Shown here in pieces: positions 3,342 through 57,210 of a stretch of DNA of 64,000 nt. Origin of the DNA: Isurus oxyrinchus. Taxonomy: Eukaryota. Position 1 is the stretch's first letter. Each line of letters starts with the position of its first letter. The notes beneath the pieces were generated by a model. The model had not been told where the DNA came from. It did no database searches and saw only the letters and a program-made list of their open reading frames with translations. The stretch is from NCBI GenBank assembly GCA_026770705.1, contig JANJGN010000056.1, forward strand, positions 1,674,001-1,738,000. The letters run 5' to 3'. Position numbers and translations under genes: made by a program.

Positions 3342-3838
3342 TCAATGGGTTATCCACTGTAATTTGCATTGTTTTGCGCTCAGTTTCACAAGGTACTGCA
3401 TTCCACTCTTCAGCTCCTCCCTAAACCTAGCCTGCGTCAGCGCATAAATGAATGCATTTGTGCAGCAACTGAGGTCCCCTAGCATGAATCCAACTGGCCT
3501 AAGCTCATTTGCCTCAGAATTTGACGTGATTGTTACATGCAGAGAGATAATATATATAACAGGTGTTGTCCAGAGCAATATATAGCTGCCGGTAATACTG
3601 AAGAGTAAAATAATGGACTTTCTTCGGCTTTTTATTTCAGAGTCCTTGTGATGTTCTCCATTACTGCAACTATGGAGACCCCTGCGAACTTTACTGGCTG
3701 CCAAAATACGCCTAGCTGTCAAAACATTTAGCAACAAGATTAGAATGAATGGAACACATGGGGTCAAGGTAAGGGTAATAAATTCAAGTGCGGCCCACTC
3801 AGCAGAAATGAAAAATGTATGTTTTAGGACACAATCGC
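3342..3838 (-). pseudogene. Truncated GPR139-like GPCR copy C (ECL2-TM5-TM7-C-tail only)
   Basis: Minus frame DCVLKHTFFISAEWAALEFITLTLTPCVPF...SCCTNAFIY...FREELK is paralogous to A/B. Homology stops near 3838, where intron-derived sequence abuts; an in-frame stop lies at 3846-3848. Confidence 0.85.
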
Positions 3839-6737
3839 TTGTGTCTCAATGACAACATCTGTGATTTGAAGTTGAAGCTTAAAATTGATTTTTTTTCTGG
3901 GTATCAAGTGCATAAAATTGCGAGAAAAGGTTGTCCATGTTGGGCAAAAAGATTTGAGTCTGTAGACTAATCTGTGTTCAGAAAAGTAAAATTACGAATT
4001 GCTAATTACCTGACGATAAAGATCTAACTCCTAATACACCGATGTTTAAATTAATATCCTCTACAGCTTAATTCACTACAAATTGGCCAGACTCGTAAAA
4101 CCCATGACTCTTAGCATTATTTGCTGGGAGCGATTGATTTCCAGGTTTTTGATCCAGTGACAGTAAATGAACGTTGATGTATCTGCAAGTCAGCTTGATG
4201 CGTGACTCAGAAAGGATTTTGTAATTAAGAGTGTTCCCATCACTCTTCTGCTGTTTCCCTTCCACGATTTTGAGGTCAAATGCACAAACGAAGGAACGTT
4301 GCTGACACCTGCCCCATGTCCAATACAGCAGCAAGCAAAGCTAACAACACGGCTTAACCTGGTGAATTTCAAGCCCGGGGCTACTTGCAAGCAAAAAAGC
4401 GTATTCAGCATGAGAAAGACAGGGCTCATTGGTCCCCCTACCAAATAACGATAGCTCAGCTCTGAAGTCCTGTCACAATCACCTTTAATGGTGGTGTAAA
4501 ATTCTGCACCTCACTTACTCTCCAGCAATATCCCCATCAGCAATGACTGTGGAGCGCAGCACACCAGTGCATATACATGGCAGAAGAATTTGCAGCCACA
4601 TTCACCCTGAAGTGACGGGTAGATGAACCATCCGGCCTCCACCTATGGATGACAAGCATCACAGATGCCAGTCTTCATACAATGTGATTCTCAGCACTCG
4701 GATTTCAGGAATGACTGAAGGAACTGGATGATGAAGAGGTTATGGGTCCATTTAGATAATGCCAATAGTACGGGAGATCACTGCTCCTGAATCAGCCTTC
4801 CTATCGATGCTGGTATGGTGCATCTAAACCTTTGGCAACTATGCGAAACTTTGAGAATTTTCACAGGTATGCCTATCCACAAATAATCACGACAAATCCA
4901 ACCAATCTAAGTACAGCCCCATCAGCCTACATTTAATCAAGATCAATGTGATGAAAAGTATCATAGAAAATGCTTTCAATCGCCAAATACTCGGCAGAAA
5001 ACTGTTCACTGACCCTCACTTTTTGCTTCGTGCGAGCTGAACTCCTGGTTCGGACTGCCTCCAAACATGGACACAGGTGCCGTACTTATAAGATGAGGGG
5101 AGAGTGGATGTGAACTATATCAATGCATCAGTTATCACAATGTGGTATCAAGGAGGGGTATAAGAATTGTGGTCAATAAGAATAAGGGGAAACTTCCCTA
5201 CTGAGTGAACTCATACAAAGCAAAAATAATTTATTTTTTCATTTTTATTTTCTTTTGCAGGTGCATCATCTCAGCACCATGACATAACTGGACGACAGAC
5301 TGAGGGCAGTGTCCTGAGCCCACCCATCTTTAGCTTCTGAATCAATTATGCTCTCTCCATTTGAAACACAGTAGGACGCTGGTGTGGTGGGGGGGGGGGG
5401 GTGTGGGAAAGTGGGGGGAGGTTATATCCGCTGAGAATTGTTAAACGTTCCACACCATTCAGACTCAACAGATGCTGATGAAATCTCTGCCCATGTGCAT
5501 CAAGTCCTGGGCAACAGCCAGACCTGTGCTGAAGAATGATCAGTAATATTCGCCCCGCAAAATTGACAAGAAATGTCCATCTGCACCAAATGAACATCCA
5601 ACAAATTAGCCTTGACATTTACTGGCATTACCATCGCTTAAGCCCCCGTTTTCAACATCCTTGGACAAACCATTGACTGGAATCTGTGACTCGAAGGGCA
5701 GGTCAGAATCTGAAAATGTTGTGGTGAGCAACACACCCCCTGACTCTCCAAAACCTTACCTCCATCTAAAATGCACAAATCAGGAATGTGATGAGATACG
5801 CTACAACTGTCTAGATGATGTATGCTCCAGTAGAATTCAAGGATATTGACTTTACCCAGGACAAAGCTGATTGCTTGATTTGCAATCATTCCATAAATTT
5901 AATGATTCAAGCTGTTTACCCTTAACTGAATAATTCATCTTCCTGCTTTGAAAGTTCATACGAATCATGAGCAAACATCTGAGTGAAATTATCTTATCCA
6001 AAACGTAATATATCCACCGAATTCGTCGGTATGCTCAATTCTATTACTGCTTTCCTAAATACCATTTTGCAACACTTCCAGCGTGCACCATTTTTCATAT
6101 CCTTCAGTACACGTGGCACTTAAGTGACATCTCATGACATCACGCAACACATGGGCAATGAATGTCCCCTTCTGCTGACCAGCTCCCGTTCACCTCAGCA
6201 GATGAATCAATGATCATCAATGGCCGAAGTTTTAGGGAGAGAGAAGAAAAAAATGCTTTCCATCGGAGACCTTGAAGTCTGTGAGCAAGAGCGGATCAAT
6301 AGCATCAATAATGTCCGAGCTGGCAGAGTCATAAAGATAAATGCTAGATTAGGTCTTTGGGAGGTGGTCAGGGAACCAATCAGGTGCAAACCTCTAAGTG
6401 AATTCGCTCCACAAACTAACCACCACAGGTGCAGCTGTCCATTTAAGAATTGATAGGATAGACCACTGCACGTCCTTGTACAGATGAATTCCGCCTTCAC
6501 ATTGGGGCTTCTCTCCATCGTATTGTGTGAGACAACCATTGTCCTAAATGGGGTAGGTTTCACCTTGATTAACAAATCAAAAGTGGGCATTCACGAGGCA
6601 TTGTGGACCATTAGCTGCAGCTGATTGGTGCAGAACCATAATTTGTAACCCCAAGACCAGTCTATCCCCAAATCTGCAATTTTCATATGGACTGTTTATG
6701 GTGATGTTTCTGATGCCAGTCAAGCATTCTACTTCAA

Positions 6738-9779: not shown

Positions 9780-10470
9780 CACGATGTTAATATGCAGGTA
9801 CAGCAAGGCAAATAGAATTCTGCACTTTGTTAATTGCAAAGAAAATTGATTATTGAAGTAGTGATGTCTTACTGCAGTTGTGTAGAACGTTGCCGATATC
9901 ACATCTAAGGTACTGTGCACAGTTTTGGTCTCCAAATTTAAGAAAGGATATCAACTAATTAGAATCAGTTGATATAACATTCAGTCTGCAGATGCTTGTG
10001 ATGCTGGGTTGGTGGAGGGTTTTGGTGGTTTGGGTGTTAACTTACTCAGAAACTTTGTCAACATTTGTTGATTGGAGTCTGGAAAATGAGAGGTGCTTTG
10101 AAATAGGTTAGATCCTGAGGCATCGTCCGTATTTGATGCAAAGAGAAAGTTTCCCTTGTCGTGGAGTTTGGAGCAAAGGGAGAACAGTTTTCAAGTTGTG
10201 GGTCTCCCGCTGAAAGGGAGGTGGAAGCGATTTTTTTAAGTCATTGTGTTCAAGGGCTTTGGAACTCTCTTCCCGCAAGTGCTGTGTAGGGAGGCTGATT
10301 GGATATCTATTCAGGCAGAGACAGATATTCTCTTGCGTCCCAAGGGTATCAAATGTTATTGGAGGTGGAGGGAATGTGGAATTGCGTCCACAATCATATG
10401 AACCATAATGTTATTGAATGGCGGGGCTGGCTCGAAGAGCCGGTTTCTCTACTTCGACTCTAAATTCGTA
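9780..10470 (+). mobile_element. Decayed CR1 3' portion (paralog 36650-37270)
   Basis: AQFWSP.LRKDI..LE and LWNSLP motifs plus a CR1-like 3' UTR. Confidence 0.7.
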
Positions 10471-11137
10471 TTTATATGCTTCCATTACCCTGTGCAGCTT
10501 AATCTCCTTTTGAAAGAGGAAATCACTTGCTCTTTCAATCCACCATTACTTCAGTTTCCCCTCGTCCCTAAACCATGTCCTCCTGTTCCAACAGTGCATC
10601 TGCCTCAATGTCTTGAAAGCAGTGTTCATTGCCTTCCCCTAGCTTCGATCTCTCACAGACTCGACCTCCAGCTTCCACATCGAACTCCTTCCAGAAACTG
10701 AAGCTCCCAGCCGTGGCTCTCAGGCTGTTCCCGTTTTCTAAAGCCCACTGTTGATCCTTGTGACGCATAGGAAGAAACGACCTGCACCTCCGACTGCCTT
10801 GTTGCAAACAAATACTGAGTGTACAGCTAAGTCTCATTTTCATCCATATATTCGCTTTCACTTGAATGCGTTTATTGAACACAGCTCCCTCACTTAGAAC
10901 TTTCTGTGGATTGTGCGCAAAGATTGTTCACTTTATGTTTGTGATTGTCCGAGCAGTTTTTGATAATGGGATTTAGATACATTTTTGTGACTGAATGTGT
11001 TGCCCAGGCCAATTATCAGTTTATATGTTAAATGCCGCAAAGAACGGAGGGTTTTAGGACATTTCAAGGCAAACTGTTCCCTTGGCTCCACGTCTGGTGA
11101 AACACTTCTGTTTCTTCCTCTTTATTCTCTCTTCCAG

Positions 11138-11430
11138 GTAACTTGGTGACGTTTTTGTTCCTGTCGCGAGGAAACTATTGCATCTCTAATGTATCATTTG
11201 CTACCTGGAGCGAATGTCAGGGTCCGAATTCTAGGCCGTTATCTCTGATCCCATATTAAAGAGGATTTGTCAGCAGAGATTTCCAGTTCTATGCGAGCAC
11301 AATACTCGCATGTGGAAATTCATTTCGTTACTGTTCTTTTTTTCAAATTATCACAAAAAACTCTTTCTGCCTCACAGTTGAAATTACCCACTATCCTTCT
11401 GTGGCTATTTGTTGCATGAAGCAAATGTCT
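11138..11430 (+). pseudogene. Old degenerate GPR139-like exon 2 fragment (TM1-TM3/ICL2)
   Basis: Acceptor tctcttccag, then GNLVTFLFLSRGNYCIS-(frameshift)-CIICYLERMSGSEF*AVISDPILKRI. Later SFCLTVEITHYPSVAICCMKQ matches SVWLTVAFTFDRFVAICCQ. Not in the ORF track. Confidence 0.72.
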
Positions 11431-11484
11431 TACACCCCATCATGTTCATAGCTACAGAAGTATATTCTTATCTAATAATATTGC

Positions 11485-11670
11485 TTTTTATCTATCTATA
11501 TATCTATCAATGTATGTATCTATCTTGCTCTTTCACACACTCACTCTCTTTCTAGCACACACTGTCTTGTTCTCTCTCTCTCGCATGTTATCTCTCTCTT
11601 CCTATCACTCTTTCCACATGTCAATCTCTGTGCACTTATCTCTCTGTCTATCTGGCTATCAGTTTGTCTA
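11485..11670. repeat. Low-complexity (TCTA)/(CT)/(CA) microsatellite tract
   Basis: Degenerate tatc/ctct/caca repeats. Confidence 0.7.
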
Positions 11671-14479
11671 TTGAACTATCTTGATGATTGATTCCCCCGG
11701 CGCTTCGACAGGTGTGCACTCAAAAAAAATCAAGGTGATATCATTTGTGAAGTTATACCAAGTCTAAATTGGACAATCGATTTCCATGTTTTGTTTACAA
11801 CGTCCGTTCAGGCAGGATAAATTAACTTTGCCCGCCTTTCCTTGTCTTTAACACACTTGAACCTGTTCTCCACAACTGTAGAAATCACTGAATGAATTTT
11901 CAATTTGGGGTTGCCAAAGGTTTTTTTTATGTTCACAATTATATTTTAAAATACATATTTTCATGAGGTGGGGTTGTGTATAAATGGGCCAGAAGATACT
12001 GCTCTTTCCAAGTTGCCTTTGAGAAGGTTGTCAGTGGCCGTTCCTTGTAATCCAGCTCCTTCAGGCTCATGGAGAATTCACATGACTGAGAAGCCCAATT
12101 CTGGACCTATATGTCCATCCGCCGTAGGGCTCGCTTTTGGCCCATTTTGCGTTTCTTCTGCTCCTGTGCCTATGGCCTTCCAATTCTCTGTCGAGTCGCT
12201 GAGCTGCAAACTGGTTTTAGCCTTGCTGGACCAGATGGTGCCAGGCCGAGAGATCGGCAGCATTCTCAACCTGCTCACTGGTGTTAATGCCTCCGTGCTT
12301 TACGGCGACATTGAGCGTGCACTGCTAACTTTATATTTATTCGCCCTTTGGTCAAGGAATGCTCAGTGGCAGATGCAGCTGCCGGTAGGTACGCCTTTCC
12401 TGAAACATGTGTCCGGCGACCGCCATACATCTGCCGCGTTTATGCAGAATTTTAGCTGGTATCAAAGGTATCCAGATATCACAGCCTTGCACCTGTCGAC
12501 AATCCTCCATCCGCACAGTGTCTGTCGCCTGAAGGAGGCCTGTGCACTGTATAGTTTAGCATCAGGATTCCAGTGTGCCGGGCGGAGGGTTCATATGGTG
12601 CAGGTGAGCCACAGGGCTGTTAGTAAGGGAGCATTATGACCCCATTCACTGTGACGCAGCTTCCAATCTCTGGGTTTGGCTTTTAGATTTGAGACAACCT
12701 GTCGTGCAGCTTCCCGTGTTAACCTATTGAGGCCTGTGGAATGTTGGCATTCTCCACATGAGTCCAATGGCGTTGCAAATAAAAAAACACAATAAAAAAA
12801 ATACCGTTTGATAGACTTTGATCTTCCATCTGAGGGAAGCTCCATGTTTTTCTTCCAGAAGTCAGTGAGTGCAGCCTGCCCAATGCCGAACTCATTTATG
12901 TCAGGTCATTTTTTATTTGCTCATTGTTAGTTCTCTTGGAGAGCATGCTGCTGAGTTAGCAAACTTCCTCACAGAACAGAGGGGTGTTTTGTTCAGAGCA
13001 GCTGTGGCTTCTTGGATCAAGTAACCAGCGGTGATTTGATACAGTTTCTCTATCTGCAGATATACTGTTAATCGAAAGTATTCTGAGACAGCACGCAGCT
13101 GGATGTCTCCGTATTCTGCCCTATGAAAGCACAGTGGTCCACGAATAAGACTTCACTCAGTCGCTGTTCAGTCACCTATGTACAAGGTTTTGCTCTTGGC
13201 TCTTTGCAAACGTTGGCGTTTGACCTGAAATGAAAATGCAAACCGATGTCAAGCTCTTTGAGTGCATAGTGGAGAATGGCTTCCAAGTATATGATAAACA
13301 GAGCTGAAGCCATGAACAGTGTCTTACTTAGCGCCGCAGGTCACTTGAAAGGGGTCCACACTGACGAACCACTTTGCATCACTCTGTTTATCAGGTCATC
13401 ATCAAATGCACAAATGACACAGATCCTCTTTTTCAACTTTTCAGGGAGGCCTCATATTCAAGAGTGATTTGGATAGCTTATTGACGAATAATGGATATTG
13501 GGGTCATGAGGATGTATGTGTGTGTTTTCAGGGTGCAATGGAGGGGTAGAGTGTGTGACACTGGTTGGAGGAGTGCAGGCAGGAAAATGGAGCTGAGGCC
13601 ACGATCAGGTAAAACCATTTTCTTTCAGAGCTGCAGCACAGACTCGAGAGGGCGAATGCCCTACTCCTGCCCTTAATTCTTGTGATGTTGGCCATGTATG
13701 AAATGCAGCCCAAACCAACAGCTGGAGGCGACGACAATTCGGGTTCATTATAATGAGTGACTCAATAGGACAATGACAGTCGGCAGAAGACATTTGAGGG
13801 CCAAGGGTTCAATGTTCAACGTGGAATATTCTCCCAGCATTGTACTCTAGTTATCATACAATTTTATAGAAAAAATCGTTTTTCAATCAGCCCAAACATC
13901 TCTCTGGATGGAGTATGTGAGTGGGTGCTGTAGGATGATTGGCTGCTGCAGGAATGGATATTGAGCGTTTATGGGATCGGAATCATCTTGAACACTTTAT
14001 TTTGAAGTATTCTGGTTGAGAAAAGAAACTCCTTCTCCATACAGCTTGTGTTACGCATCACGTAATTAACCAAGACAAACCCTCCACGTCCTCCGCGTGT
14101 ATTTATAACTTCCAGGTGGAATGGCGCAAATTTCAATGCAACGCCATGGATTGTAGGCCTAGTAACCGATGGAGTTGTCAGTGCCAGCGTAATCCATGGA
14201 ACGATCAGTGCAGAGTATGTCTTCCATCTGGGAGCTTGAAAGTCAATGACAAGGATCACACAGTGCCTTGTTGGAACATAGAATGAGACCAGAAACTCAA
14301 AACAATGGGGAACATCTGAAATTTCTCCATTAGGTCTGGAGGATCAGGAACATTGAGTTGCTAAGCTTCATTTTGATGTAAATTAGTGATGATTTTCCCC
14401 GCAACAGCGACTTGTGGTTTAATCTTTTCCTGTCTTGACCACCTCCGATAATATTTACCCGTTGATCAAAACATGCAGC

Positions 14480-14700
14480 CCCTTCCACTGGTTTGACCAC
14501 AGACATCAGTCCAATATTGGACGTTTGACTTTGAAGTCGTTGCTTTCACAAGGAGAGAGACTGACGTAACCTGTTTGTTCAATGACTGAAATTGATTTAT
14601 TTCTTCAGGGAACATGAATGAGCTAATGGGGATTTAACTGTTGTATAAATAAGAGTTTCTCTGAACGGATCATTTCATGTTCTCCGAAAGACTCAGTGAT
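14480..14700 (+). promoter_or_regulatory. Putative core promoter of gene A (TATAAATA at 14644-14651)
   Basis: The TATA box lies in a block with only about 6 differences in 130 nt versus the copy upstream of gene B, well above flanking similarity. RUNX-type ACCACA at 14496-14501. Confidence 0.6.
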
Positions 14701-14799
14701 TCTGCTTCAATTAGCGCTTCTCACAGCAAATAGCCTTTATTGCAATTTGTCAGATACGGGACACTTACAAACCAATTGTCGAAGTTCTCGTTGTCTAAT
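14675..14799 (+). other. Predicted non-coding first exon of gene A (donor GTACGT at 14800; acceptor ends 15366)
   Basis: Starts about 25-30 nt after the TATA box. The donor is conserved in B (GTATGT at 39739). A pyrimidine-rich acceptor ccatctcag lies 24 nt before the ATG in both genes. Confidence 0.5.
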
Positions 14800-15390
14800 G
14801 TACGTTTATTTTCACAAACCCAGGCTAACAATAGGAATTTCTCTTATTCTATCCATTCATTGAATGTGGGCGACACTGGCGAGGCCAGCATTTATTGTCC
14901 ATCCCTATTTGTCCTTGAAAAGATGGTAGTGAGATGCGTTTTTGAGCTGCTGTAGTCTGTGTTATAAGGGGGAGGTCCAGTACTTTGACACAGAGGCAGT
15001 GAAGGAACGGCGATATACTTCCAAATCCGGACGGTGAGGGGTTTGGAGAGGAGCTACTGGTGGTGGCTTTCTCATGTCTATGTTACCTTTGTCTTTCTAG
15101 GTGGAAGCGGACGTGGGTTTGGATGTTTATGTACAGGGCTTCATGTCTGTAAAATGTAGCAGGTTTTCTCTCTTCCCTGTTACGAATGCTTTGGTGAGAG
15201 TTTTCCCCTTATATTCTGGGGTTAATTAATGTGGTATCTCCTTCCGAGTCTCGACAGTGATTTTACATTTTTTATTTTAAGTTTCTGATATTAATTCAAA
15301 GGAGAAGGGTATGTTTGTAAGTTCCAGCTCACATCGTTCCATTCCATCCTTTTTTACCCATCTCAGGAGGAAAGACATCTTCTCATAAAA

Positions 15391-15460
15391 ATGGCAGAAC
15401 TGATACTTCTCAAGATAGAAGCCATTTACTACCCGATTCTCGCAGCTGTTGGTGTACCTG
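15391..15460 (+). CDS. GPR139/GPR142-like orphan GPCR gene A, coding exon 1 (MAELILLKIEAIYYPILAAVGVP + 1 nt)
   Basis: ATG in aaaATGG context. It encodes the IYYPILAAVGVP start of TM1 and ends at the donor CTG|GTAAGA. The phase-1 junction joins in frame to the exon at 24396. Confidence 0.9.
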
Positions 15461-17089
15461 GTAAGAGCCTAAACACAATCAGTGGACGTATTAATGAATA
15501 TTGACTTTCTTCTCAAATGGTGTTGCTGGTAACGTGAAACCGTTCCTTTTCTGTTGGAGAGTTATCAAAGTTTAGGTGTCACGTTAACTGATTTCTTACT
15601 ATTGCTTCATATTTCATGCATCATTCTAGAGTGTTGACACCATATTTATTCTTTGGGGAATTTCTTGAATTTGGGTGCGCTCTGCAATAATTGTCATGAC
15701 CAAGTGCAGACCGTCTTTAAAATTGGAGATAAAACGTATCTATGAAAATCAATGCAAGGGCAAATTCGCATTCTGCAGAATTCAGCTTGAACTAATTGAA
15801 AGTGTTTGCTCACGGTTTTCCCCTGTTTTCCAATATCGCAAGCAACAGAATCCCTGTCAAATCACGTACTTTTTAACAGCGATATTTTTACAAATCAGTG
15901 TGAAGTTACGAAATCTGGAAACTTGGCTGAATCACAATGCTGTGTGTGATTAAGACATTCCGAAGTCTTACTCGCTTGTATGTTGATACAAATGATTTTC
16001 AACAGCCTTTGTTCACGACCACGTTGATGGAATTACTTAAAGTAAGCGTGATTTGTGCTCTTTAAGCTTCCATAGACATAATGTTAACAATGACCGGATT
16101 GTATTATTTTGTGGATTTTAGCTGAGGTATAAATTTCGTTCAGGACACAGGGGACTACAACAATGTTGCTCCTCGAAAAAGTGGAATTGAATCTTTTTAC
16201 GTTTTCCTCGTGAATCAATTTGACATCTTTTCTTAAAGGTTCTGCTTGTGGAAGTGCAGAATTAATTTACTAAGACATTGGAACATTAGCCGAGAACTTT
16301 GTTCTGAAGTCCTGGCGCCGGAAGCAAATCGTTAAACATCTATCTCAGCACGGAGATTTCAACTGACTGAGCCATAAGTGGCCTGATTTTGAAACAACTA
16401 CACACCCCAAGTAGTAATTTGGTTCTGAATATTCTGCTCCATTCAATTTCTCGCCCTGCACTACCTGCTGATGTAAAAAAAACTTGCAAGTTTATTTGAT
16501 TTGTATTGAGGATTGAAATTAGTTGGATTAAAGCATTTTCGGACTCCCCTGTCTCTTTTTGAATCTCGCATTGCTAAGTGACATGCAGGTTCTGACAAAA
16601 GAGCATAGAGGCAGAGGCAGTGGGAGCAGAAGTTAACAATTTGGCCGCTTGAGCTTGTTCAACTACTCAATTATATCATAGCTGTAAAGATGCATTCAAT
16701 TCATTTCCTTGCACTATCGCATATCTCTGGATGCATTTAACATTTAGAAAATGGTTCATCGCGCTGCCTTCAACATTCCCAATGACTGAGCCTCTGCCGC
16801 TGTTGGGAGAGATAGTTTCAAACATTCGCTGCTCTCTGAGTGAAGAAATTCCCCCTCATGTCTGCCCTAAATGCACACCTGTTATTCTGATACTGTCTCT
16901 CATGATATTAGACACATCAGCCAGGGGCACATCCCTCCAACATCTGTAACATCGAACCCTGTAAGAACGGTCTATGATTCAGTGAGATCATTTCTCATTT
17001 GGCAAAGCTCCAGAAAGCATAGGGTCAGTCTCGTCAATGTCACCACATTGGAATATCCCAGCTAATTCCCAGTAATTCAAGGAATTATC

Positions 17090-43837: not shown

Positions 43838-43945
43838 CGAAACGTCAACTCTTCTCTTCTCCGCCGATGCTGACAGATGCGCTGAGTTTTTCCAGCTAAT
43901 TATGTTTTTGTTTTGTATTTCCAACATCTGCAGTTTTTTGTTTTT
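43838..43945 (+). mobile_element. Short Penelope 3'-end insertion with target-site duplication, unique to the unit B intron
   Basis: CGAAACGTCAACTC...GATGCTGACAGA...CAGTTTTTTG matches the 6740-6855 pLTR. It is flanked by AAAATATAAA (43825-43834 and 43946-43955); the site is empty in A near 18930. Confidence 0.85.
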
Positions 43946-46900
43946 AAAATATAAACCTTCTTTTGTGATACGTATTTTTGCAATCAATGTGTAGGTCCCC
44001 CATTATTTTTATTGACCCCAATCCTGATATATCTCCTTGACAAAACATTATGTGAAATGTTGTCTTCATGTAAACAGGAGCCGCTCTCCAATCACCTCAT
44101 GAATTCAGCACTTTTGGCCATGTTTGGTTTAAGGCCGAACCGAGAGCTGGAGCTCGTATGAAGCAAAAAATGGTCACCAGTGAGCAGGTTACTTCCGAGT
44201 ACGTGGCGATTGAAAGCAATGCCCATGACGCATTCCATCACTTTGTTCATGATGATCATTAGGCACATTTGGTGGTAATTTGATTGTTTGGATTTGACGT
44301 ATTTTGTTTTTATGGATAGGCCCAGCTATGCAACTGCTCACCTTTTCGCATGCATGCCAGTGTTTTAGCTGTACTATACCAGGTTCTCTAGGAAGGTTTA
44401 TTCAGGAGCACTAATCTTCCGTACAATTGCTGGTATCCGACAGCACCCATAGTCTCTTCATCATGCAGTTCCTTCAGTCATTCCTTCACCTCAAGTGTTG
44501 TGAACCACATTGGCTCAAAACTGGCTTCTGTGTTGCTCTCATCCACAGAAGGGGGCCGGGATGATGCATGCACCAGTCACGTCAGTCTGAATATGGTGGC
44601 AAGTTCTTCAACCATGTATATGCACTGATATGCTGTGCTCCACAATCATTGCCGATGTGTTTATTGGTGGTGTCCGCCACCATTGAGTCATGGAATTTCC
44701 AACAACATTGAAGGTGACATGAGCAGAACTTCAGAGCTAAGTTAACGTTATTTTCTGGTGGGACTAATTAGACCTGTCAATTGCATGCTGCATCCGCTGC
44801 TTTGCATGCAAGTTGTCCTGTCTTGCAATTCACCAGGTCAAAGCCGTGTTGTTAGGCATGATTGCTGCTGCTCCTGATATATGACAGATGTGAACAAAAG
44901 GCATCCGTTCGAGCACTTCACATCGGAGGCCTGGAACGGCAAGAGCAGAAGTGGCCTGGGAATACTATTATTGCAAAATCATTTCCAAGTCACACCATAT
45001 CCTTACTTGGAGATACATCAGCATTCCCTGACTGCCAGTGAATCAAATTCCTGTAAACACATCGCTCGAAACACTGTTTGTGCACCCGCATCACATGGAC
45101 AGCAAGAAGAAGAATATGTGATATCGGAAAAAAATACTAATCTTGCCAATGATTCCCACGAAAAGAAAGTGCTGCATAATGCCGAATCTATGAATGTTTC
45201 TTTGTCATTTGATAATGAAAGGACGTCCCTGTGTTTTTACTTTGTGATAGTAAACTAAGGTGAACTATAACGTGCATGTTTTAATTCAAATCCTTTGCAA
45301 TAATCCACTTACCAACTGAGGACATGTGTCATCATTTCACGTCTGAATGCCTACATCTGCAGCCAAAACGATTGGCTGTAATTTTCATCACCAAATCGCA
45401 CGCCGAACCCCCACCCTCACACTTCCTATCACCACTCGCACCCACCCGGCCACCACAACCTCCTCCACCGCATCACCCACCCGCCTCAAAATAGTCAAAT
45501 TTCCAACGTAGATAAATTACATGCAGTGGGTAAAATGATTTTGCGTTCTTAATTCTCCCCATTTACAGATGGAGAACGGGCGGGCCCACCTTTCTCAGGT
45601 TACTAATCAACAGGGTATTGAGCTTGTGAGTGAACCAATCGTGTGTTCCCCTGTTTGGTGCATTGCATTTGCTGTGGCTCAGGTGAGAAAAGTAATTTGT
45701 TTAGTGCAGCTACTGTGAGACGGCAAATTGTCGGAAAGGAACTCCTGCCTCCAGCAGCATCATCGAATAAAACAGCAGATTGTGCTGGGGAAGATGGCAG
45801 CATCTTCATGGTTTTTATCTCACTTTTTTTTTCTTGCCTGGGCTTTCAATGAAAAATATTTTTCGAAAGAAATTCTGAGTAGGTTGTCTTGAGCTTGTAA
45901 CCAGACCGACTCTCTGTTCATAGCATTACACTCTGCCGCATGAGGTCCAGGCATTCACTGCCGACTGGACTTGGACACCATTTTGCATCACTCATTGCCT
46001 CTTCCGCGGAATTGGATGAGTTGAGGAGGTAGAGGCCGTCTAAGGGAGGGTGAGTGGGACAAGATGGAGCAGACCACTCATTTTGCATTTCGCCAATCTC
46101 ACGTTTCCGCAAAATGTAAAATCCAGTCTGATGCCTACTTAATGTAATGTTCCTTTAGGTACCTAAGTCACTTTTCGCGTTTTTAACCTGCAGCGGGGGA
46201 ACTTCTCCTGCATTTCTACTGTAACTGTTGCTATCTAGTCTGCAGCAATGTGTCATAACCAAAAAACACTGTTCAGTGGATCTCACTCTGTGTTACATGA
46301 GCCAGAGCATTCACAACGTCCGTGAAATGAATTGGAGCTTCAGAATCTGCTTTACATACAAACGATGCTGCAGAAAATTGTTATTTTGTGCTTACATTAC
46401 GAAGCAAAGATGACTCTTGAACTGATACGGAGTTAGGAAAGTGGCAGAATCTCCATCGCTCTGTCGTTCATCAGACTGGGGTATTTACGGGAACGACACC
46501 AAGATGCAAATTAATCAAAGTGCACTGAACCTGTTCTATGTTTCTTTTCACAAACAGCAAATCAATAACAGGTGAGAAGCAGATTGCTTTTGCAGAGAGC
46601 AATTCCTCAGCATATATACATGTTCACTTCTCCACTTAATTTATCAGGGGTTTATATGGATAATATACTTGATATTTGTATATTTAATTTGAAAGATAAA
46701 ATACTGAATAATGGTTTCTATAGTTCACTATTAAATTCGGTAGAGGATTGCGTGGTTCATTCGTGGGGCATTTCAATGGTTAATTTGGAGGAAATTTCTG
46801 GAAACTTGTTGTTAATGTATTGGATAGTAGTTTTGAAAATTAATTTGCTCAAACATTGGCGGCTTCATTATATAATTACGTACATTACTCTCTTTTTCCT

Positions 46901-49722
46901 GTTTTAATAGTTTCCTTATTTACAGATCTGGCCAGTACAGCTTTATGTGCTGATAATTTCGTTAAATATCTTTGTTTAGCTCAATAAAGCAAATTGATAA
47001 TTAGGACTCACAGTGAAAATTAATGACATTGTAGTGAAATAAATACTAGATTTGCTCAGGGAATAATAGGTATAGGGTTAATGAAGGTAAACTTTATTTT
47101 TGACGTTTCCTTTGGGCTGTAAATAAGTCAAAACGGCTTTGACTTTCTACTGTTTCCCTCGCTTTCTCGTGCAGCCTACGTGATCAAAAGAAAATCAACC
47201 TTCAACTTATATACATTACCTAGCGTTTTCAAGGCTGTTTGTGATTATCTCTGACAGTTCTCATCAAGTCAATCAAAGTTTGACGCTTACATTCGAATTA
47301 GAACATTGTGAATGGGAGGCAGCAGCTGCCAAATGGCCTGTGTTTGTCACCTTATAAAGATTATTTTTGTGTGGTCAGAGCTTGGCAACTTACAAGCTGA
47401 TACAGGAATGGGAAATTCTGTTTGACTTTATCCGACTAATACAACTTACTTTTTTCAAAGTTCATGCAAATAATTACTCAACATCTTCAGGAATTAAGAT
47501 GATCCAAAATGATATTTCACCACCACTTTTATAGACATTGCTCCATTGCATTGATGTTTTCCTAAATACAAGTTTGCAAAAACTACACATTCAGTCTGCT
47601 TCAGGTTGCAAATCCTTGAAAGCACTTGGTACTTCAGTGAACTCTCTATTCACTCATACCTCGATTGTGAGAATGTGCATTTTCCATTCCTTAATCTGGG
47701 CATCCTGAGTCTGAACGGAAATTTCAGCCGAAAAGCTATTCTGCACCATTGCAAGAGCCAGCAAATCCTATCCGACATGATAAGTACCAGAAGTACAAAC
47801 AAAATTTCAGAAGCTAACCAATTACGTTTCATATTAATTAAGACTAGAGTTATTTAAATTGCTTTGAAATGCAGATTAAAAATAAATAACCGTGTTAATT
47901 AAGTTATTAAATGTATGGCAGGAACAAATTGGTTCATTGCAATTCACTGAGAAACTCTTCAAAACTCAACGGAGTTTTAGTAGTTTAGTTGAACAAAAGA
48001 GACCTTGTTGCAGGCATGATTATCCGAGGCTCACGTCAATTTCGTATGATTTATAAAGATTATTGGATTTAATCACTAGTAAGTAGAAATGCTTCATTTA
48101 ACCTTCAATATGATAACACAACTGTGAATTCCATGGCTAATTAACAAAAATGTTCTTGCATTTTGAAAAAGAAATATATATTTTACCAAATAATGCTAAA
48201 ATTCAAGGATGTTATGATGCAAACCAATCTGAAATAAAAATAGCTGCAAGATATGTTAATTTAACCATGCATATGTTAGGATTTAGCTCTTTATCATCGG
48301 GTAATACACACTTTGTTGTTTTCCTCTTCTAATCATATAATAGACCTAAAATAATCTATCTACTCAAATCGATGTGCCTATCACAGTCCATGTCGACCTG
48401 GAACTTTTACACTTGGTGTCCTACGAGGGTCGGTGTTCAGCTTCACATTTCAAATCATTTCTCATGGTTACTGTGAATGAAACGCAAGTGACTCCCTTAT
48501 ACCCTCTCGGAAACTAAGTGCCTCCATCAACATCCGATCAATCAATGGGAACGTTCTCCTGTCTCCTCAGAATAGATAGTTGATTTTAACTATTGGAATC
48601 ACATCTTCCAATTGCTAGCTCACCACACATTACCAACTATGTGTCTTGCATCGCTGTGATTCCTATTGTACCTGCATTTTGCGATATCCGTTCATTACAC
48701 TTTAAAACTAGTCATTCCAGAAAGAAGCGTTGCGCTGCGCAATAACTACTCTGCCTTCCCGATGGCCAATAAATATTGCACACTTAACCTGATAGCAATG
48801 TCACCGTTCCCATTCGGCCATTCAACTGCCGCCTTGATCAGCATCAACTATACCCAGTCGGCAAAGCAATATTGCTTTACTTTGTCTGCAATGAATTAGC
48901 GCTGCATTCACCTGATTATACCTTCACAGTGCCCAGCCTGCATATTAATCTTTCATTACTGAGTCTGCCTTAAAACATCTGACTCATCAGCCCTCATCCG
49001 TTACCACAACGTTTCACTACGAATCTGCATAAATATGTCACCTTGTTTTGATGGTCATTAGACGGCATCTGTGTGGACTCCTGGGTAAACTTTTATATGG
49101 CCTCGTCTATGCTAGTGTTTCTTTGTAGCTCAGTGACCATTCTAACAGGCCCTGTGCAACTACTATTCCATCTTTACACTCCAATCGTTTCAGAGTATAT
49201 CCATGCTGCCGGCCAGGATTTTAACTTCGAGCTGTCAGGCCTGTTGCGCAGTAACCCTTCCAAAAACTTATCACATCTATAAACCACGCAGCACACATTG
49301 CAGCACTACCTCTTGCAGAGTATAACTCTACTTAGCCCATTTTGCAGCTTCATTTCCCAATTTATATTTCATCCTCACACATGAATTATCTCTTTACAAC
49401 CCCAATTTAATATTTAAAGTTCAACATTCCCAGCCGTTCTTGTACCATAAAATTGTCCAGAACAGATTCTCCCTCCAAATGCTCGATCGTTGTTGCAAAG
49501 TAGTTGCCCCCAGTTTAAATTGACGATGTTCCTATCAAAAGAGGAATGAACAATTCCCTGTCCACATGTACTAAGTCCAATCCACATTTAGTACATGCTC
49601 GTCTCGGGAAGCAGGCCCTGCATTTTTGGGTAAAATGCATGAGCCTTTTCTGTAACTGCAAGAGAAGTTGCCTTGCTCATCTGTGACGTCTATCTCCTTC
49701 TCTCTCTATCCCTCACTTACAG

Positions 49723-50630
49723 CTAATGTTGTTGCGATTGTGATCCTTTCCAGAAGAAAGTGTGGACTTTCCAAGTGCATTACACTCTATATGATGGCCA
49801 TGGCAGTGGCTGATTTCCTGTTTATTTGTACTGAAGTCATACTGAAGGAGATGCTGGGTGTTTATTTTCCGGATTCATTCTTGACAATGAGCACGGTGTG
49901 CCATCTAACTGAGACGTTGATTTATATATTCACATCAGCCGCTGTATGGTTAACAGTGGCGTTCACCTTCGATCGTTTTGTGGCGATATGTTGTCAGGAG
50001 CTGAAAAAAAAATATTGTACAGAGACAACAGGCGCAGCTGTCATATCAGTAGTGAGTGCTTTGAGTTCTTTGACAAACATTCCCTGGTATTTTACGTATG
50101 AACCTGCATATATAATTGGCAATGTATCTCGCGGTTGCTTCCTAAAACCGACATTTTTCATTTATGCTGAATGGGCTGCATTTGATTGGTTTACCCTTAC
50201 TTTGACCCCATTTGTTCCCTTCATTTTAATTTTGTTGATAAATGTTTTGACGGTGAGACGTATTTTAGCCGCCAGTAGAGTTCGCAGGGGTCTCCGCGGT
50301 TGCTACAATGGAGAGCATCACAATGATCCAGAGATTGAAAGCCGAAGAAAGTCCATAATTTTACTGTTCAGTATAACCGGCAGCTTTATGTTGTTCTGGG
50401 CAGCTCCGCTTTTATTTTATTTTATCACCCTGCGTACAGCAATCATTTCATATTCTGGCACTAATGAACTTGAGTCATTGGGATTCATGCTTGGGCTCCT
50501 CAGTTGCTGCACAAATACATTCATTTATGTGCTGACACAGTCTAAGTTTAGGGAGGAGCTGAAGAAAGGAATGCTGTGCCTTATGGAATGGTGCGTAAAA
50601 TTAGTCAAATTACAGCTGAAAACCATTTGA
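49723..50630 (+). CDS. GPR139/GPR142-like orphan GPCR gene B, coding exon 2; full protein 325 aa
   Basis: Acceptor CTTACAG ends at 49722. Intact 7TM frame ANVVAIVILSRRKCGLSKC...DRFVAICC...NTFIY...KTI*. The ORF-track start at 49668 is intronic. Confidence 0.93.
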
Positions 50631-50816
50631 CATATGCAGGAGGACATAAACATTGTGCTTGAAGGGATTAACATTAGCAAAATACTTGAAGCAATATATG
50701 GCCACTCTGGACAAAATTATATCCCGCCTAAAAATACTCCTTTATAGTATGGAGTCAAATTGAACTCCTTTTCACAGTATACTGTAAACAATGGTGAACA
50801 TGAGGTGTGATGACAT

Positions 50817-50822
50817 AATAAA
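50817..50822 (+). terminator. Candidate polyadenylation signal of gene B
   Basis: AATAAA about 190 nt after the stop, at the position equivalent to gene A. Confidence 0.4.
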
Positions 50823-52214
50823 CGAAAATTACTGAACAGCCCGTGTTATTATTGCAGGGTTTGAGAGGATGAATTGTGATGCCCGGTTCTGTAACAATAG
50901 AGCTCATTGCAACAGTTGCTCTGAACAGCAAGAGAACATCCCAGACATCACCAGAAGTATCACAATACCTCGAACAAGCGTAACTTAGAAAAACGTCACA
51001 AATACCCTTCAACGTCTCTTCTGGGTCGCATAATGTATTGGGCGGTTTTCAGAACAGGTTTCAGGAAACCTGGCACCCTCGAAATATCGGACTGTTGCAC
51101 AATGAGCTGCTGCTCAGAGTTCCATATACCTCACACGATTAAAACAAGGAACGCCTGGCCATCAAGTGCTTTGTAAAAGACCGGGCATTGGCGCAATTGT
51201 CACAGGGTACATTTTATCACTCATTCGCAAGATCAATAGGACTTAGAGACGGTTCCCTATCTTGGCTTCGGATTTCCTTACGATTTCTTTGAAAGCTTGC
51301 ATAGCTCAAACTTAATTATTCACGAACATAGGAGCTGCCACCTCTCCACATGCTCATTCACAACAGTCTGTGTTTCACGTTTTCTGGTCCTTTCTCACAC
51401 ACGGCCAGCAAATGGTTGTTACCACAATTCACAGATGCTGTGGCGATTGAAAATTATTAACTTGAAATCCACTCATCAAAATACCGAGTGAATCTTCAAA
51501 CAGATATCCTCTCCAATTCCAGGCTATGAAACATCCACTCGCTCATGGCCCTACCTTAAACATCTTCCTTTGTATTCCTATGTATTTTGAATGTGAACAA
51601 AAAACTTTATTCTTCTTTGCACATATTCTTCTCGTTTATTCTCATTTACTTTACTTAAACACAGTTGTAGAATGCAACCATATACTTCTTAGAACGTAGA
51701 GCAGATAATTTGACTTACTCTTTCTTTATTGGGTCTCTGAAGCGAAGATGCAGCCTCCTCCGTGTGCATGCTGTCTGGATCATTCGGTTTTCTCAGATAC
51801 TAACACAAAATCGCCTTGACCTTCCCTAGTTGACCAGCCTAATCATCCCGGAAAATGGTTGGCCACAAGAACGGCCAATTAAAATGACAAATGTACACTG
51901 GCGTTAGATACAAACTTGCACCCGCCATCACGGAATAAATTATCATTAAAAAAATGATTCGGTCATTGCATGAGGCGCACAGCAAGAAAACCATTTATTG
52001 ACAACCTCTCATTGCTCTTACAGCAAAGTGAACGTGAACCGCCTTTTCGAGCAGCTACAGTGAATGTGATATATTCGAGCAGGATACTTAGGACCTGAAT
52101 TAATAAATACCCACACCGACAGCTAGGCTAGCACTCTTTTCCAAATAGTTGCTCTGACAGTTTTGGACCTCCACTTTCTAATAATCAACCATAGCTGCTG
52201 AGCTCCCAGTCCTT

Positions 52215-53180
52215 TTAGTTCCTTGGGGAACCTGAGATCCTCAGGGTTGTGACCGAGGCCCAACCATGTTTAGCTCCATCATCAAGGATCAGCACTCCAT
52301 TGCAAAGTCAGGAATGGGGATGTTCGCTGATGATGCACAATGCTCAACACATTTCCAGATTCCTGAGATAATGAGGCAGCCCATGGGCAAATGAAGCATA
52401 TTCTGGACAATGTACTGTCTTTGGCTTACAATTGGCAAACAACATTCACACCAGACAAGTGCCAGGCAATGACCGTCTCCAAAAGAGTTAATCTAAACAA
52501 CACCTGTTTTCGCTCAATGGCATTGACAAATGTCCCACGATCAGCATTGTAACTGTTATCACTGAGCGGAAAGTGAACTGGATTAGGCATATAAACACGA
52601 TGTCTATTAATCCACTTCAGAGGCGGCAAGTAACACACTTCCTGGTTCCCGAAATCCTATCCACAATCTTCAAGGGAAAAGAAAGGATTGTGATGCTATA
52701 TTCTCCACTTGCCTAAATACGTGCAGCTCTAACAAAACCCAAGAAGCTTGACATCATCAAGGACAAAGCAGCTGCTTGATGGACACTACACCAACACACG
52801 TTTTGTTCCTCCACCGGCGATGAACAATGGCAGCAGTCCGTGCCACCTATAAGAAGCAATTCAGGGATACACGAAGGCTCCTTAGGCAGCACTTTCCAAA
52901 CTCACAACCGGTACCACCTAGCAGGATAAGGGGCAGCAGGTTACCAGGAACACCAGTACCTGGAAGATCCCCCTCAAGCTATTCGCAACCCTGATTTGGA
53001 AATTTATCGCTGTGCCTTCAATATCATGTGTCAAAATCCTGGAAATCCATCCCTATCAGCACTGTGGGTGTACGGGCACACCAGGGACTGCTGTGGTTCA
53101 TGAAGTAGCTCATCGCCATCTTCACAAGCGTAACTATTTATCGGCAAGAAATGATGTGCCAGCGATTGAAGCCAAAATAA
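52215..53180 (+). mobile_element. Decayed non-LTR LINE RT and 3' end (paralog)
   Basis: Colinear with 26890-27880. Confidence 0.7.
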
Positions 53181-56100
53181 CGTATATGAATAATAAAAAA
53201 GTTGACTATGTGGCTGCACAACTTCTGCGCATTCCTATTCTCCACTCTGAGAACCATGCTCTACCACAGTCACATCAATGTTCCAACTTCCTCTGACACT
53301 CTGCTCTAGCTACATAGCTCCCGCTCTTTTATTAAATCTCTGCTCTGGGGGAACAGCCCCAGTTACCTTTCACTCTGTGATTTGATTACCTCGCCCCCGA
53401 TCTTTCTACTTCTTTCCTCTCACAGCCCAGCTCCCGCTCAATTTAAGTCCCGATGTCTCAACCCACCGCTCTTTTTAAAAATACCACCTGTTGCCGCTCA
53501 GCCTCCATCTCTCTCTAATTCAGTGTGCTCACTGTTCAGCTGCAGTACCAAGAATATCACTAAATATGACTTTACAGCCAAGCGTCCAGCCCGGAATTGG
53601 AGACAGCTGAGATTAATTGAGAATGATTACGGATTTGTAAAAGGCATCCCTTTGACTAAGTACATCCTGGAACAACATAGTTTGCAATCTAATGTCACAA
53701 CTGGGAAAATTAAGAATGATAATACAGGAGTGGTTGGCTAACTGGATTTTGAGGTATTAATTGACAACCTACTGCAGATAGAGCTGGTAAGAAAATTTAG
53801 GCTCATGAAAGAGGGCAGAAGCGGGGTGTCTCTATCCAATTGGATACATTTAGGTAACACACCGAAAACATAAACTGTTGGTAATCGTTTTGTTTCAGTC
53901 TGGATGAAGTTAGCCATTGGTTTTCCCCATGAATCTGTGTTGGACTGGTGTTCGTTTTGCTGTCAATAAACCAGTTGAATCTTAGAATAAGGCACAACGT
54001 CTCAAAACGTGTGAATTATACACATAAAGTGGGCTGGGTGTTAACCAGTGAGGATGATACGAATCTATTGCAATTGGACACGGAGAAACGAGCAGAATTG
54101 GCAGGGAATTAGCAGATGCAATTAGATGCATTGCAGGGTAAAATAATACATGTTGGCTGATGGGGTAGAGAGGGGTAATGGAAGCAGAATGACACTGTTA
54201 GAAAGAATGTGGCTGAACAGGGTGAGCAGGGGGACAAGCTTCGATATCTGAATGTGGTGGACACAGCCGTGCTGAGGGTATGGCTCATCGTGGCGAAGGC
54301 GACTGACACCGCACTTTGGGAGTGGGGGGAGGGGGGTGATGTGGGGCGCGCTGTGCTGACTTTTGAATGTGGCGACCTTTCCTTTCTGGGTAAGATTGGA
54401 GGAATCTGTCTAACTGAGGTAGATGAGTGACGCTATTCGTATTTAGAATGCAATGGCTACTACGTGCAGTGAGAGATAGAAACAGAGGAAATATCGCTCG
54501 GATGTGGAAAAAAAGGCAGAAAAAAATGAGAAAATGATAAGAACCTGAAACGTTCTCTGTTTACCTGAAGAGTCAGAGCTCCATCAAGTTGAGGACCAAT
54601 TGGAAGAAGCTTTGAGGATGTCAAGGACACGATCTGCAATCTGCTTGAGGAACTTCAATGCACTTCCTCAAGTGTGACTCAGTCGCACTATTACTTTCCA
54701 AACTGGCCGGCTCATAAATCAGTTTGCTGCTGGACTGGCTCAGTAGCAGCTGGTGAGGGAACCAGCAAAAAGGAACACAAATCTACGTTACCTACTCCTA
54801 ATTTTTTTTTCTGTTTTAGATGCATGTAAACATGAAAGCATAAGTAAGAGTTAGCACCTCACAATTGTATTGGGGACTAACTCCCGTGCTCACACTGAGA
54901 TAGCCTCCATCCTATAACGTGACTCTATGAGTGCGTTAAATGAAATAGTTATACTATTCTACCAACTGGAAAATGGGCATCCATTATGTGCCATGGGAGA
55001 ACAACGGCAGCAGCATTGTATATAACCACAAACTGTAACCCCTTGACCCTGCATATACCTCACGTTGCAATTAATATCAAACTGTAGCTAAACACTGGTT
55101 GTCAGAAGACCGTTGGTGGTGAGGGGGTGAGGGTGTTTTGTGGGGTGCTGGCATTTGGGAACACTGCCAGACATTCCTTAAAGTGAATTGAAATACTTTC
55201 AAAAACACGCTGCAAAGCTGCAACAAATTGAAACTTAATTTACAAACATCCAAAGAAACGTGTGATATGCAGACCAAAATGATCCCAAAATAAACGGACC
55301 AGATGTTAAATCATCAGTTTTTCCACATGAATGAGTATGAATAAAAACACAGCGAACTGAAGGTGGAGGCTGCACAAACATTCCCAACCTCACTGATTGG
55401 GGAGCTGAACACATGACCGCATATGACATGGCAGAAATATTTGCAAAAATTCCAACCATAGGTCACGCATGGATGATCTAAATAGGCAACACGTTTTGTC
55501 CACAGTATCACAAATGCCAGTCTTCAGCCAGATAAAATCACTCTACGTGCTATCAAGAGAATGCTGAAGGCACTGGATACTCCTAAGAGTTAGGACCCTG
55601 AAAAACCGCTGGCATATTACCGAGGACGTTAGCTTCCCAGCGGCTAAAACACTCGAATTTACCTGGAAATGTAGACAAGTGCTCTGGTTTGTTCTGTCCA
55701 CCAATTTAGAAAACAATCCAGGTCGACAAAATGCGACCCCATTAATGTACTCTCGATCATCTGAAGAAAATATTGGTGGAGGCCGTTGACAATGCTACCA
55801 ATTGATATTAATTCAGCAATAAATTGTTCGCTGATGCTCAGTTTGGAATCTGCAAGAATCCCTCAGCTCCTCACCTAGTTTCATACCCGGGGGCACATAT
55901 GCACACATGAGGTAAACTCTTGAGGTGAGAGTGAGAGTGACCGTCTTTGGTATCAAGGCGAGAATTTACCGTTCTTTCACTGCTGGCCTTGTTCCACTCT
56001 GCCATGACTATGTTCCCACATCCAGGCTTCCCTTTTTAGGTGGCCAGGAAATGAATTGTCAACGGAATGCTGGCATTTATCAAATCGCCCAAAAACCTGT

Positions 56101-56334
56101 GACTACACATTTTGTATTGCACCTCAATATTATTTACCGTTTGACAATCGATTTCATAGTCAGGTTATCGCTACCTAAGAAACATAAAGTTGGAACTGGT
56201 ACATTTATTTACGATTTGCAAATGTATTACTAGATATAATAGCACATTTGGAAATCATAATGAAGTCATCAAGCAAACTGGTAACTTTGCTTCTTGTCTA
56301 ATTATAATTGTCCTGCCGTTTCTCTGCCTTGCAG

Positions 56335-57210
56335 CTAAATTGGTGACGACGGAATTCTGTCGCGGCGTAAGTCGGGGCTATCGAAATGTATCACTCGCTA
56401 CCTGGTGGCCATGACAGGGGCGCATCGACTCGTCATTATCCTCGACATGATATTACCACACATTCCAATTGTTTTCCAGAAGCAGCTTCATTTCCTGAAG
56501 TTCATTACTGTGTGTAATGTCCATGCCGTTCTGAGTTATGCAGCCACTAACTGTTCTGTCTGGTTCACTGTAACGTTCACTTTTAATCGATTTACAGCCA
56601 TCTGTTGCCGGAAACTTAAATATAAATATCGCACCAGAGAAACTGCGAATGTCGCCCTGGGAACAGTGATTGGTCTGAGCTGCACAAAGAACATGTTGTG
56701 GTATGTTATGGTAACAGGCCTGTGCTGAGGAACGTCCCCTGGTTTTGTTAGGTACGCGGGGTTCTTGGTTGTCTCAGATCTGAGTAGCAATGGTGTTCAC
56801 ACATGGAATTCGAAATCCAGTAGTACCATTTATCGTGATTCTGGTGCTCATTGTTTACACTGTCAGACACATTTTAGTGAGCAGCTGAGACAGGAAGAGG
56901 CTCAGGCCTCACAACACTGGGAAGAACCGCGGAGACCCAGGAATGTAAAGTCGAAAGAAAACCATTATTATATACTTTGCAATTTCAGCGAATTCCATCC
57001 TGTTACGGTCAGTGTTAATGCTTTATTCTATATGGATCGGATGTAATATTTGGGGTATCGATCTCTAATGACAGATGTGCTTGTGCTGGAATTGGGTTTA
57101 ATGCTGCAGCATCTTAGTTGCTGCACGGAAACTTGCCATCACCAGGTTCAGAGCCCAGTCAAGAATGTATTCAAGCATCCCTTTCCTCTAATTGTTCAGT
57201 TCACTAAACA
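56335..57210 (+). pseudogene. Divergent GPR139-like exon 2 pseudogene (different subfamily), multiple frameshifts
   Basis: Acceptor ctgccttgcag. Fragments ILSRRKSGLSKCITRYLVAMTGAHRLVIILDMIL...VCNVHAVLSYAATNCSVWFTVTFTFNRFTAICC, LRNVPWFC* and ELGLMLQHLSCCTET are spread over several frames. Confidence 0.85.

Follow-up and report, generated by a model that had tools for sequence, protein, structure and literature searches.

A cluster of GPR139-like receptor genes in Isurus oxyrinchus belongs to a multigene elasmobranch family with a variable predicted ligand pocket

Five copies of one class A (rhodopsin-like) G-protein coupled receptor (GPCR) gene were identified, by tBLASTn and a family profile, in a stretch of 64,000 nt of the Isurus oxyrinchus genome (GCA_026770705.1, contig JANJGN010000056.1, positions 1,674,001 to 1,738,000; the whole stretch is called the window below). 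They are members of a multigene family of elasmobranchs in which the ligand pocket has diversified while the disulfide and the cytoplasmic side stayed conserved, and a variable pocket combined with a conserved G-protein face is, judged from the protein sequences, the signature of a ligand-diversified repertoire. The original prediction, made from the letters of the window alone, had described two intact loci (A and B), one truncated locus (C) and two decayed loci of other subfamilies (D and E), and had suggested for them a birth-and-death repertoire of cartilaginous fishes distinct from true GPR139; these points were borne out by the analysis (Table 1).

Table 1. Receptor copies, upstream blocks and duplication units of the window
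Feature	Coordinates	Strand	Description
Gene A coding exon 1	15391..15460	+	N-terminus and first half of TM1
Gene A exon 2	24396..25300	+	TM1-TM7 and helix 8; Pfam 7tm_1 E 2.7e-23
Gene B coding exon 1	40327..40396	+	
Gene B exon 2	49723..50630	+	intact; Pfam 7tm_1; AlphaFold pLDDT 90.4
Copy C	3342..3839	-	exon 2 from ECL2 to its end (3' half only), frame open
Copy D	11113..11422	+	310-nt relic covering TM1-TM3: acceptor plus 5' part of exon 2
Copy E	56335..57208	+	near full-length exon 2 pseudogene, distant subfamily
Conserved upstream block of A	14500..14800	+	TATA-like motif near 14644, possible donor near 14800
Counterpart block of B	39440..39740 (limits approximate)	+	TATA-like motif near 39583
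Unit A	9857..32587	+	tandem duplication, self-BLAST
Unit B	36656..62736	+	tandem duplication, self-BLAST
Unit C	9..6729	-	inverted partial duplicate, ~70% identical to A and B; two internal deletions (self-BLAST)

Genes A and B each have two coding exons, joined across a GT-AG, phase 1 intron inside transmembrane helix 1 (TM1), with a length of 8,935 bp in A and 9,326 bp in B. Coding exon 1 has 70 nt in both genes, and the spliced proteins (324 aa for A, 325 aa for B) were open throughout and 81% identical. Several database models of relatives were misassembled at the same boundary, which suggests that the intron position is common to the relatives; pieces resembling long interspersed nuclear elements (LINEs) were also absorbed into the N-termini of some of the models. 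An acceptor-like site was located about 25 nt 5' of the ATG of gene A. The open reading frames at 21590-22048 and 46569-46907 were rejected as first exons, having no Pfam or family match and lying 6 kb downstream of the true exon 1. When the window was searched with a profile of coding exon 1, only A and B were returned (26 and 24 bits; next hit 1.2, control 1.9), so copies C, D and E are without exon 1.

A and B are class A GPCRs. Pfam 7tm_1 was matched with 83 and 73 bits (cut-off 30.5), no other Pfam family appeared at E<=0.001, and the class A hallmarks were present: seven TM helices, D2.50, DRF at 3.49-51 and NTFIY (N7.49-x-x-x-Y7.53). The AlphaFold model of B exon 2 was confident (pLDDT 90.4), with a seven-helix fold and a beta-hairpin in extracellular loop 2 (ECL2), and its Foldseek matches were class A receptors of peptide type at a TM-score of about 0.7, none of them singled out. 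The fold search was not kept as evidence for GPR139, which came at rank 26 and lower among peptide receptors; it supports class A only.

Of the 4,804 candidates from the search with B exon 2, 2,453 clusters passed E<=1e-10. The best 120 of the 2,453 were all from elasmobranchs (sharks or skates, 11 species), with 50 from Heptranchias, 44 from Heterodontus, 9 from Pristiophorus, 5 from Rhinoraja and 12 from others; the remaining 2,333 may include other lineages, and one cluster can be an alternative model of one locus. Holocephalans were not present among the named matches, and the range shown is that of elasmobranchs. The Heterodontus matches among the best 120 were placed on contigs of 22 different lengths, 13 of these above 20 Mb, so that besides clustering there is dispersal of the family. 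Cetorhinus and Carcharodon gave the best matches of B exon 2 among those listed (70-71%), which makes a lamniform source plausible. The 50% representatives formed a continuum down to about 40% identity, followed by a few full-length proteins at 33-36%; P0189 (Chordata) was the most divergent member.

Two related lineages, each with about one cluster per species, are apparently low-copy. The first is a newt gene (P0210, P0387-P0406), comprising 20 amphibian clusters and one sturgeon cluster, with no amniote or teleost among its 25 matches. Apparently single-copy, it was 66-74% identical across frogs, a salamander and a caecilian and 46% in the sturgeon; residue 2.50 is N, residue 6.48 is H, and the pocket hardly varies. 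The second is a coelacanth gene (P0224, P0269-P0386) found in sharks, ray-finned fishes, amphibians, turtles and squamates, without mammal or bird in the named rows of the 120 listed; R6.51 was kept in 32 of 32 sequences. Two models of this second gene were named TMEM183A isoforms, which hints at linkage to TMEM183A.

A tree was built from 79 hand-chosen rows, which included neither copy D nor true GPR139 or GPR142. A and B came out as sisters (100/99) and were grouped with C, Cetorhinus and Carcharodon (100/99), and copy E fell into a distant subfamily with P0008 of Heptranchias (100/100). The elasmobranch radiation of 47 rows was moderately supported (92/88); it was sister to the amphibian/sturgeon gene (99/98), and this pair joined the gene that extends from sharks to reptiles (87/85). 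Sharks and skates were mixed in two subfamilies (100/99 and 99/94). P0246, P0257 and P0259, which may be amphioxus-like, formed the outgroup closest to the GPR139-like genes of vertebrates. Among the atlas neighbours of the family were nematode, arthropod and echinoderm clusters bearing Srw, Srsx or Srx, a lead only.

Most of the listed database matches are named 'probable G-protein coupled receptor 139'. The reading that follows from these names, with the family being the shark GPR139 or GPR142, is extremely improbable. It could draw on the family profile, which scored GPR139 with 80.6 bits against 56.2 for the next and about 54 for chemokine receptors (receptors with solved structures only, among which GPR139 was the best match of both low-copy relatives too), and on the GPR139 gene also having two exons (PMC7318219). 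Against it, B scored 37 bits with human GPR139, with about 71 identities (manual count) over residues 2-279, or ~25% identity, and 20-22% identity was given by structural alignment; GPR139 itself is 70% identical between human and zebrafish (PMC7318219), and the coelacanth paralogue reached 70 bits with human GPR139, above the 37 of B. The catshark possesses its own GPR139 (reciprocal best, 81.3% to mouse) and a separate GPR142 (reciprocal best, 58.7% to mouse; PMC13200729 supplement), and in the whale shark supplement the GPR142 orthogroup is of low copy, with 70 proteins in 35 taxa. No true GPR139 or GPR142 was found by motif scan among the 410 proteins collected, which is why the tree had none.

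The agonist site is not kept either. It consists in GPR139 of E3.32, F3.33, H5.43, W6.48, R6.51 and N7.38 (PMC7318219, PMC8807744), and these positions are I, Y, V, W, P and I in A and I, Y, T, W, P and F in B. Not more than four of the six were kept in any family sequence; E3.32 occurred in 0 of 113, an acidic residue at 3.32 was absent in all 113, and R or K at 6.51 was found in 15 of 113. GPR139 orthology was rejected on identity, agonist site and the separate catshark gene, and GPR142 orthology on the P at 6.51 of A and B, where GPR142 has R like GPR139, and the separate catshark GPR142, without direct comparison to a GPR142 sequence. The suggestion of the original prediction that the receptors might sense aromatic amino acids as GPR139 does was weakened by positions 3.32 and 6.51.

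With GPR139 nearest among solved receptors, the family probably belongs to the wider GPR139/142 neighbourhood. In common with GPR139/142 it has two coding exons, W6.48 (111 of 113), an aromatic 3.33 in A and B, and mostly a residue other than proline at 7.50 (T in 105 of 113), whereas GPR139/142 are single copy and the shark family has many copies at ~25% identity. The cysteines at 3.25 and in ECL2 were kept in the shark family (107 and 109 of 113), and 3.25 of the aligned GPR139 is aspartate. Subtypes related to GPR139/142 were described as 'GPR210' in coelacanth, gar and fishes by Rinne et al. 2019 (PMC6504862), in whose main text sharks are not mentioned. The taxa of GPR210A/B overlap partly with those of the two low-copy lineages, and the Rinne identifiers were absent from the supplement text. 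The low-copy lineages are related to the shark family, but have about one cluster per species and pockets that are nearly invariant.

For the pocket, 16 agonist-pocket positions of GPR139 were mapped by offset from helix anchors in GPR139 alignments. The family alignment (A1) was composed of 94 of the 120 listed matches (long mispredicted models were mostly dropped), 14 representatives, the two window exons and 3 matches from the newt-gene search; the controls were 19 of the 21 non-elasmobranch matches to the newt gene (A2) and 32 of the 120 matches to the coelacanth gene (A3). In the family, mean entropy was 2.60 bits at the pocket, 1.39 over all columns and 0.69 in the cytoplasmic half, and the order was reversed in the low-copy relatives (pocket 0.32 vs 0.69 overall, and 0.59 vs 1.34 overall). 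The pocket was also more variable than other outer-helix positions (permutation P 1e-4; in single species P 4.5e-4 and <5e-5). In pairs with 50-60% overall identity, pocket identity was 24% in the family (2,593 pairs) and 78% in the low-copy paralogue (269 pairs), and at 60-70% overall it was 30% against 81-85%. Distinct pocket strings were present in all 39 sequences from Heterodontus and in 33 of the 36 from Heptranchias. Charges were swapped at 2.57, 2.61, 2.62, 3.36, 5.43, 6.51, 7.35 and 7.38, while W6.48 and both disulfide cysteines stayed constant. Between A and B, 6 of 16 pocket positions differed, all in TM5-TM7, compared with 56 of 300 overall. Diversification of the pocket is thus seen across the family, and the A/B codons give no excess of nonsynonymous over synonymous change (dN > dS) at the pocket.

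A and B themselves are best explained as working family members, their frames being intact. Their introns differed at 16.7% of 8,846 aligned sites (0.19 substitutions per site) and carried 56 indels of non-triplet length; had both copies been neutral throughout, the chance for the 975-nt frame to survive would be about 0.002 for no frameshift times about 0.0026 for no stop. The dN/dS of A and B was 0.65 (95% interval 0.43-1.00), thus the constraint is real but loose. In the cytoplasmic half, the nonsynonymous proportion (pN) was 0.074 and the synonymous one (pS) 0.168. Codon-level comparison was made for the A/B and C pairs, which are available as DNA sequences. The best-conserved non-coding 300 nt between the units lies 600-900 nt 5' of the ATG (92% against a background of 83%), a maximum that was reached in 0.1% of 2,000 shuffles; the block of gene A could be its promoter and 5' untranslated exon.

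These data bear on whether the expansion was largely neutral, that is, a duplication-prone unit multiplied by drift, with an unconstrained pocket and most copies redundant. Such drift would fit the three dead copies among the five of the window, a dN/dS interval that extends to 1.0, and a pocket identity of 61% in close pairs (123 pairs at 80-90% overall identity), which is about the neutral expectation. It is nevertheless unlikely as the main explanation, since the A/B frames were retained, pN was below pS in the cytoplasmic half, the upstream block was conserved, and the subfamilies common to sharks and skates were strongly supported, so that several lineages were kept since before that split.

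The build of the receptor gives a picture of how it may act. It has a very short N-terminus (about 10 residues), a disulfide between TM3 and ECL2, a fixed W6.48 and a conserved cytoplasmic face. From the short N-terminus, the variable polar pocket and the constant cytoplasmic face, it can be proposed that the small polar molecules or short peptides bound differ from copy to copy and that all copies signal through one G-protein pathway, which by analogy with GPR139 would be Gq/11 or Gi/o. This layer of 'many ligands, one output' is very probably right. Three traits of chemosensory repertoires were found, namely many genes, birth and death, and a pocket more variable than the rest. As a guess, the receptors might sit on chemosensory cells that are exposed to the exterior or to the gut, such as those of the nose and taste buds or solitary chemosensory cells. 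A chemosensory repertoire, with this site included, is the best explanation at hand and is put forward tentatively. It is favoured because shark olfactory repertoires have only 20-62 genes, the smallest among vertebrates (PMC10869828), for a large nose (PMC10116579), and because amino acids and short peptides act on the wider GPR139 receptor group (PMC12208981).

Several points weigh against this explanation. The dN/dS of A and B is no demonstration of positive selection, pN in their pocket (0.22) was below pS (0.43) over 16 codons, and the excess in the outer TM6-ECL3-TM7 region (pN 0.25 vs pS 0.17) belongs to a small post hoc window. The pairs used for pocket identity lack independence, a family set made up mostly of paralogues was compared with controls consisting of orthologues, and the pocket was placed by alignment to GPR139 at ~25% identity. 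A wider range of residue types can be tolerated at solvent-facing sites than at sites facing lipid, so the entropy contrast could be inflated by relaxed constraint. In the catshark, the olfactory neurons were reported to be all microvillous and V2R-dominated (PMC10116579), and no GPCR is among the 50 top nose-specific genes of the catshark, a list that also missed V2Rs (PMC11979771). Evidence of expression or ligand for the family was not found for any tissue in the shark genome papers and their supplements.

Two groups of known receptors can be compared. The OR, TAAR, V1R, V2R, T1R and T2R families share with the shark family clustered and dispersed copies, many pseudogenes, a variable pocket and a conserved signalling face, but differ in ancestry, A and B matching only 7tm_1 in Pfam and having their intron inside TM1. 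Membership in a known olfactory or taste family (OR, TAAR, V1R, V2R, T2R) was rejected on the 7tm_1-only match and on GPR139-like affinity in the tree, which had no OR, TAAR or V1R rows. The mammalian MRGPRs, which belong with MAS1, and the formyl-peptide receptors are lineage-specific expansions; they resemble the shark family as birth-and-death class A expansions with diverging ligand pockets, and differ in coming from an unrelated class A branch without sequence affinity beyond the general fold.

The same repertoire might instead be carried by granulocytes, mast-like cells or sensory nerve endings and detect microbial or parasite peptides and metabolites. All the repertoire evidence would fit such immune or barrier sensors equally well, the A/B dN/dS is high, and MAS1 and its relatives are reported to have been gained in bony vertebrates and to be lacking in sharks (PMC8455134), leaving the niche open. 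Against them stand the profile's preference for GPR139 over chemokine receptors among solved receptors, an N-terminus whose shortness speaks against protein ligands such as chemokines, and the lack of any sign of immune expression, for which one small nurse-shark spleen supplement without such a gene name is weak evidence; immune or barrier sensing is taken as rather unlikely, and ranks next after chemosensation. A further alternative, receptors for diversified peptides of the animal's own (neuropeptides, seminal or oviducal peptides), agrees with the ancestry of the GPR139 group among myoinhibitory-peptide, sex-peptide and FMRFamide receptors (PMC12208981) and with structural neighbours that are peptide receptors, not discriminated among themselves. 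It seems improbable, as the pocket of receptors for endogenous ligands is usually retained, which is also the case in the two low-copy relatives, and dozens of distinct pockets per genome would require as many ligands.

If the chemosensory explanation is carried to its full extent, the family would be a seventh chemoreceptor family of vertebrates, arising independently from the GPR139/peptide-receptor branch, with a size at least that of the whole known shark olfactory repertoire. Single cells of the nose, taste buds or skin would express one or a few of its genes, and the family would explain a keen nose on few OR, TAAR and V1R genes. This stronger form is doubtful. Cartilaginous fishes were described as GPCR-poor (PMC8455134), and the published shark GPCR and olfactory counts do not cover this wrongly named family, of which one shark has at least 50 distinct 90% clusters. 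If sensory, it would bear directly on shark smell; if immune, it would give the oldest jawed lineage a repertoire for pattern sensing. Through the amphibian and sturgeon relatives, whose pockets are near-invariant, the ancestral ligand could be approached in Xenopus.

No description of the expansion, of its relatives or of the variable pocket was found in open-access papers and preprints, the scope of the search (subscription literature lay outside it). The family is not mentioned in the main texts of the genome papers on catshark, whale shark and zebra shark (PMC11979771, PMC8455134, 10.1101/2022.10.17.512540), and nothing on it was seen in the accessible supplements of PMC8455134, PMC10115646, PMC10529500 and PMC13188829 or in passages of PMC13113109. 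The genes are already on record in NCBI under the borrowed name of GPR139, which annotation pipelines should drop for them. Expanded GPCR repertoires are of a known kind, and one from the GPR139 branch appears to be undescribed in vertebrates.

The family grows by duplication of the whole gene unit, promoter and intron included, and loses copies by deletion and decay. Units A and B are direct repeats with aligned blocks 78-83% identical and ATGs 24,936 bp apart. Amplification of all loci as whole units of about 25 kb, as had been claimed, holds for A and B and in part for the inverted unit C (~70%), and does not hold for D and E. Relic D is inside a 2 kb segment present only in unit A (10505-12574) and copy E inside a 4 kb segment present only in unit B (54582-58714), so they are passengers and not units. 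Unit C is older than the A/B duplication and probably extends past the left edge of the window. The B flank at 53360-53915 is common to C and absent from A; the simplest reading would be that unit A lost the B-specific segments and that E is an old passenger. A segment of 0.55 kb is inverted between the units (27907-28448 in A, 54029-54582 in B), with adjoining sequence missing from A. The 4 kb spacer between A and B (32587-36656) matches no other part of the window and contains no remains of a receptor.

Copy C, which was 78% identical to P0002 of Carcharodon, is a pseudogene by deletion, lacking the acceptor, the 5' half of exon 2 and exon 1. Its flanks aligned to B until 50131 and again from 48343, so about 1.8 kb including the acceptor was deleted from C; beyond this deletion comes another gap, of about 3 kb. 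Copy D is decayed, with three frames and one stop, and its best matches were outside the A/B/C subfamily; at the protein level it was weak (12.2 bits against 5.1 for the best control), and at the DNA level clear (nhmmer E 4.8e-19, against E 5 for the best reversed-window control). At least three in-frame stops and several frame changes were present in copy E.

A decayed reverse-transcriptase element was located at 7348-8848 on the minus strand (Pfam RVT_1 E 2.3e-7), followed by a GIY-YIG-like motif without Pfam match, and we presume the element to be Penelope-like. It lies at the end of the unit C homology and may mark the loss of exon 1 of C. A stop-free frame of 229 codons (11950-12639, plus strand) without Pfam match occurs within the unit-A-specific segment that holds relic D, and is possibly the opposite strand of a mobile element. 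Rfam and tRNA scans of the window returned nothing. Three stretches, at 27186-27608 (without Pfam match), ~42619-42687 and 52852-52926, presumably represent C-termini of LINE reverse transcriptases, which they resemble. The window contains no N, its G+C content is 37-47% per 2 kb block, and the retroelements present in it are decayed.

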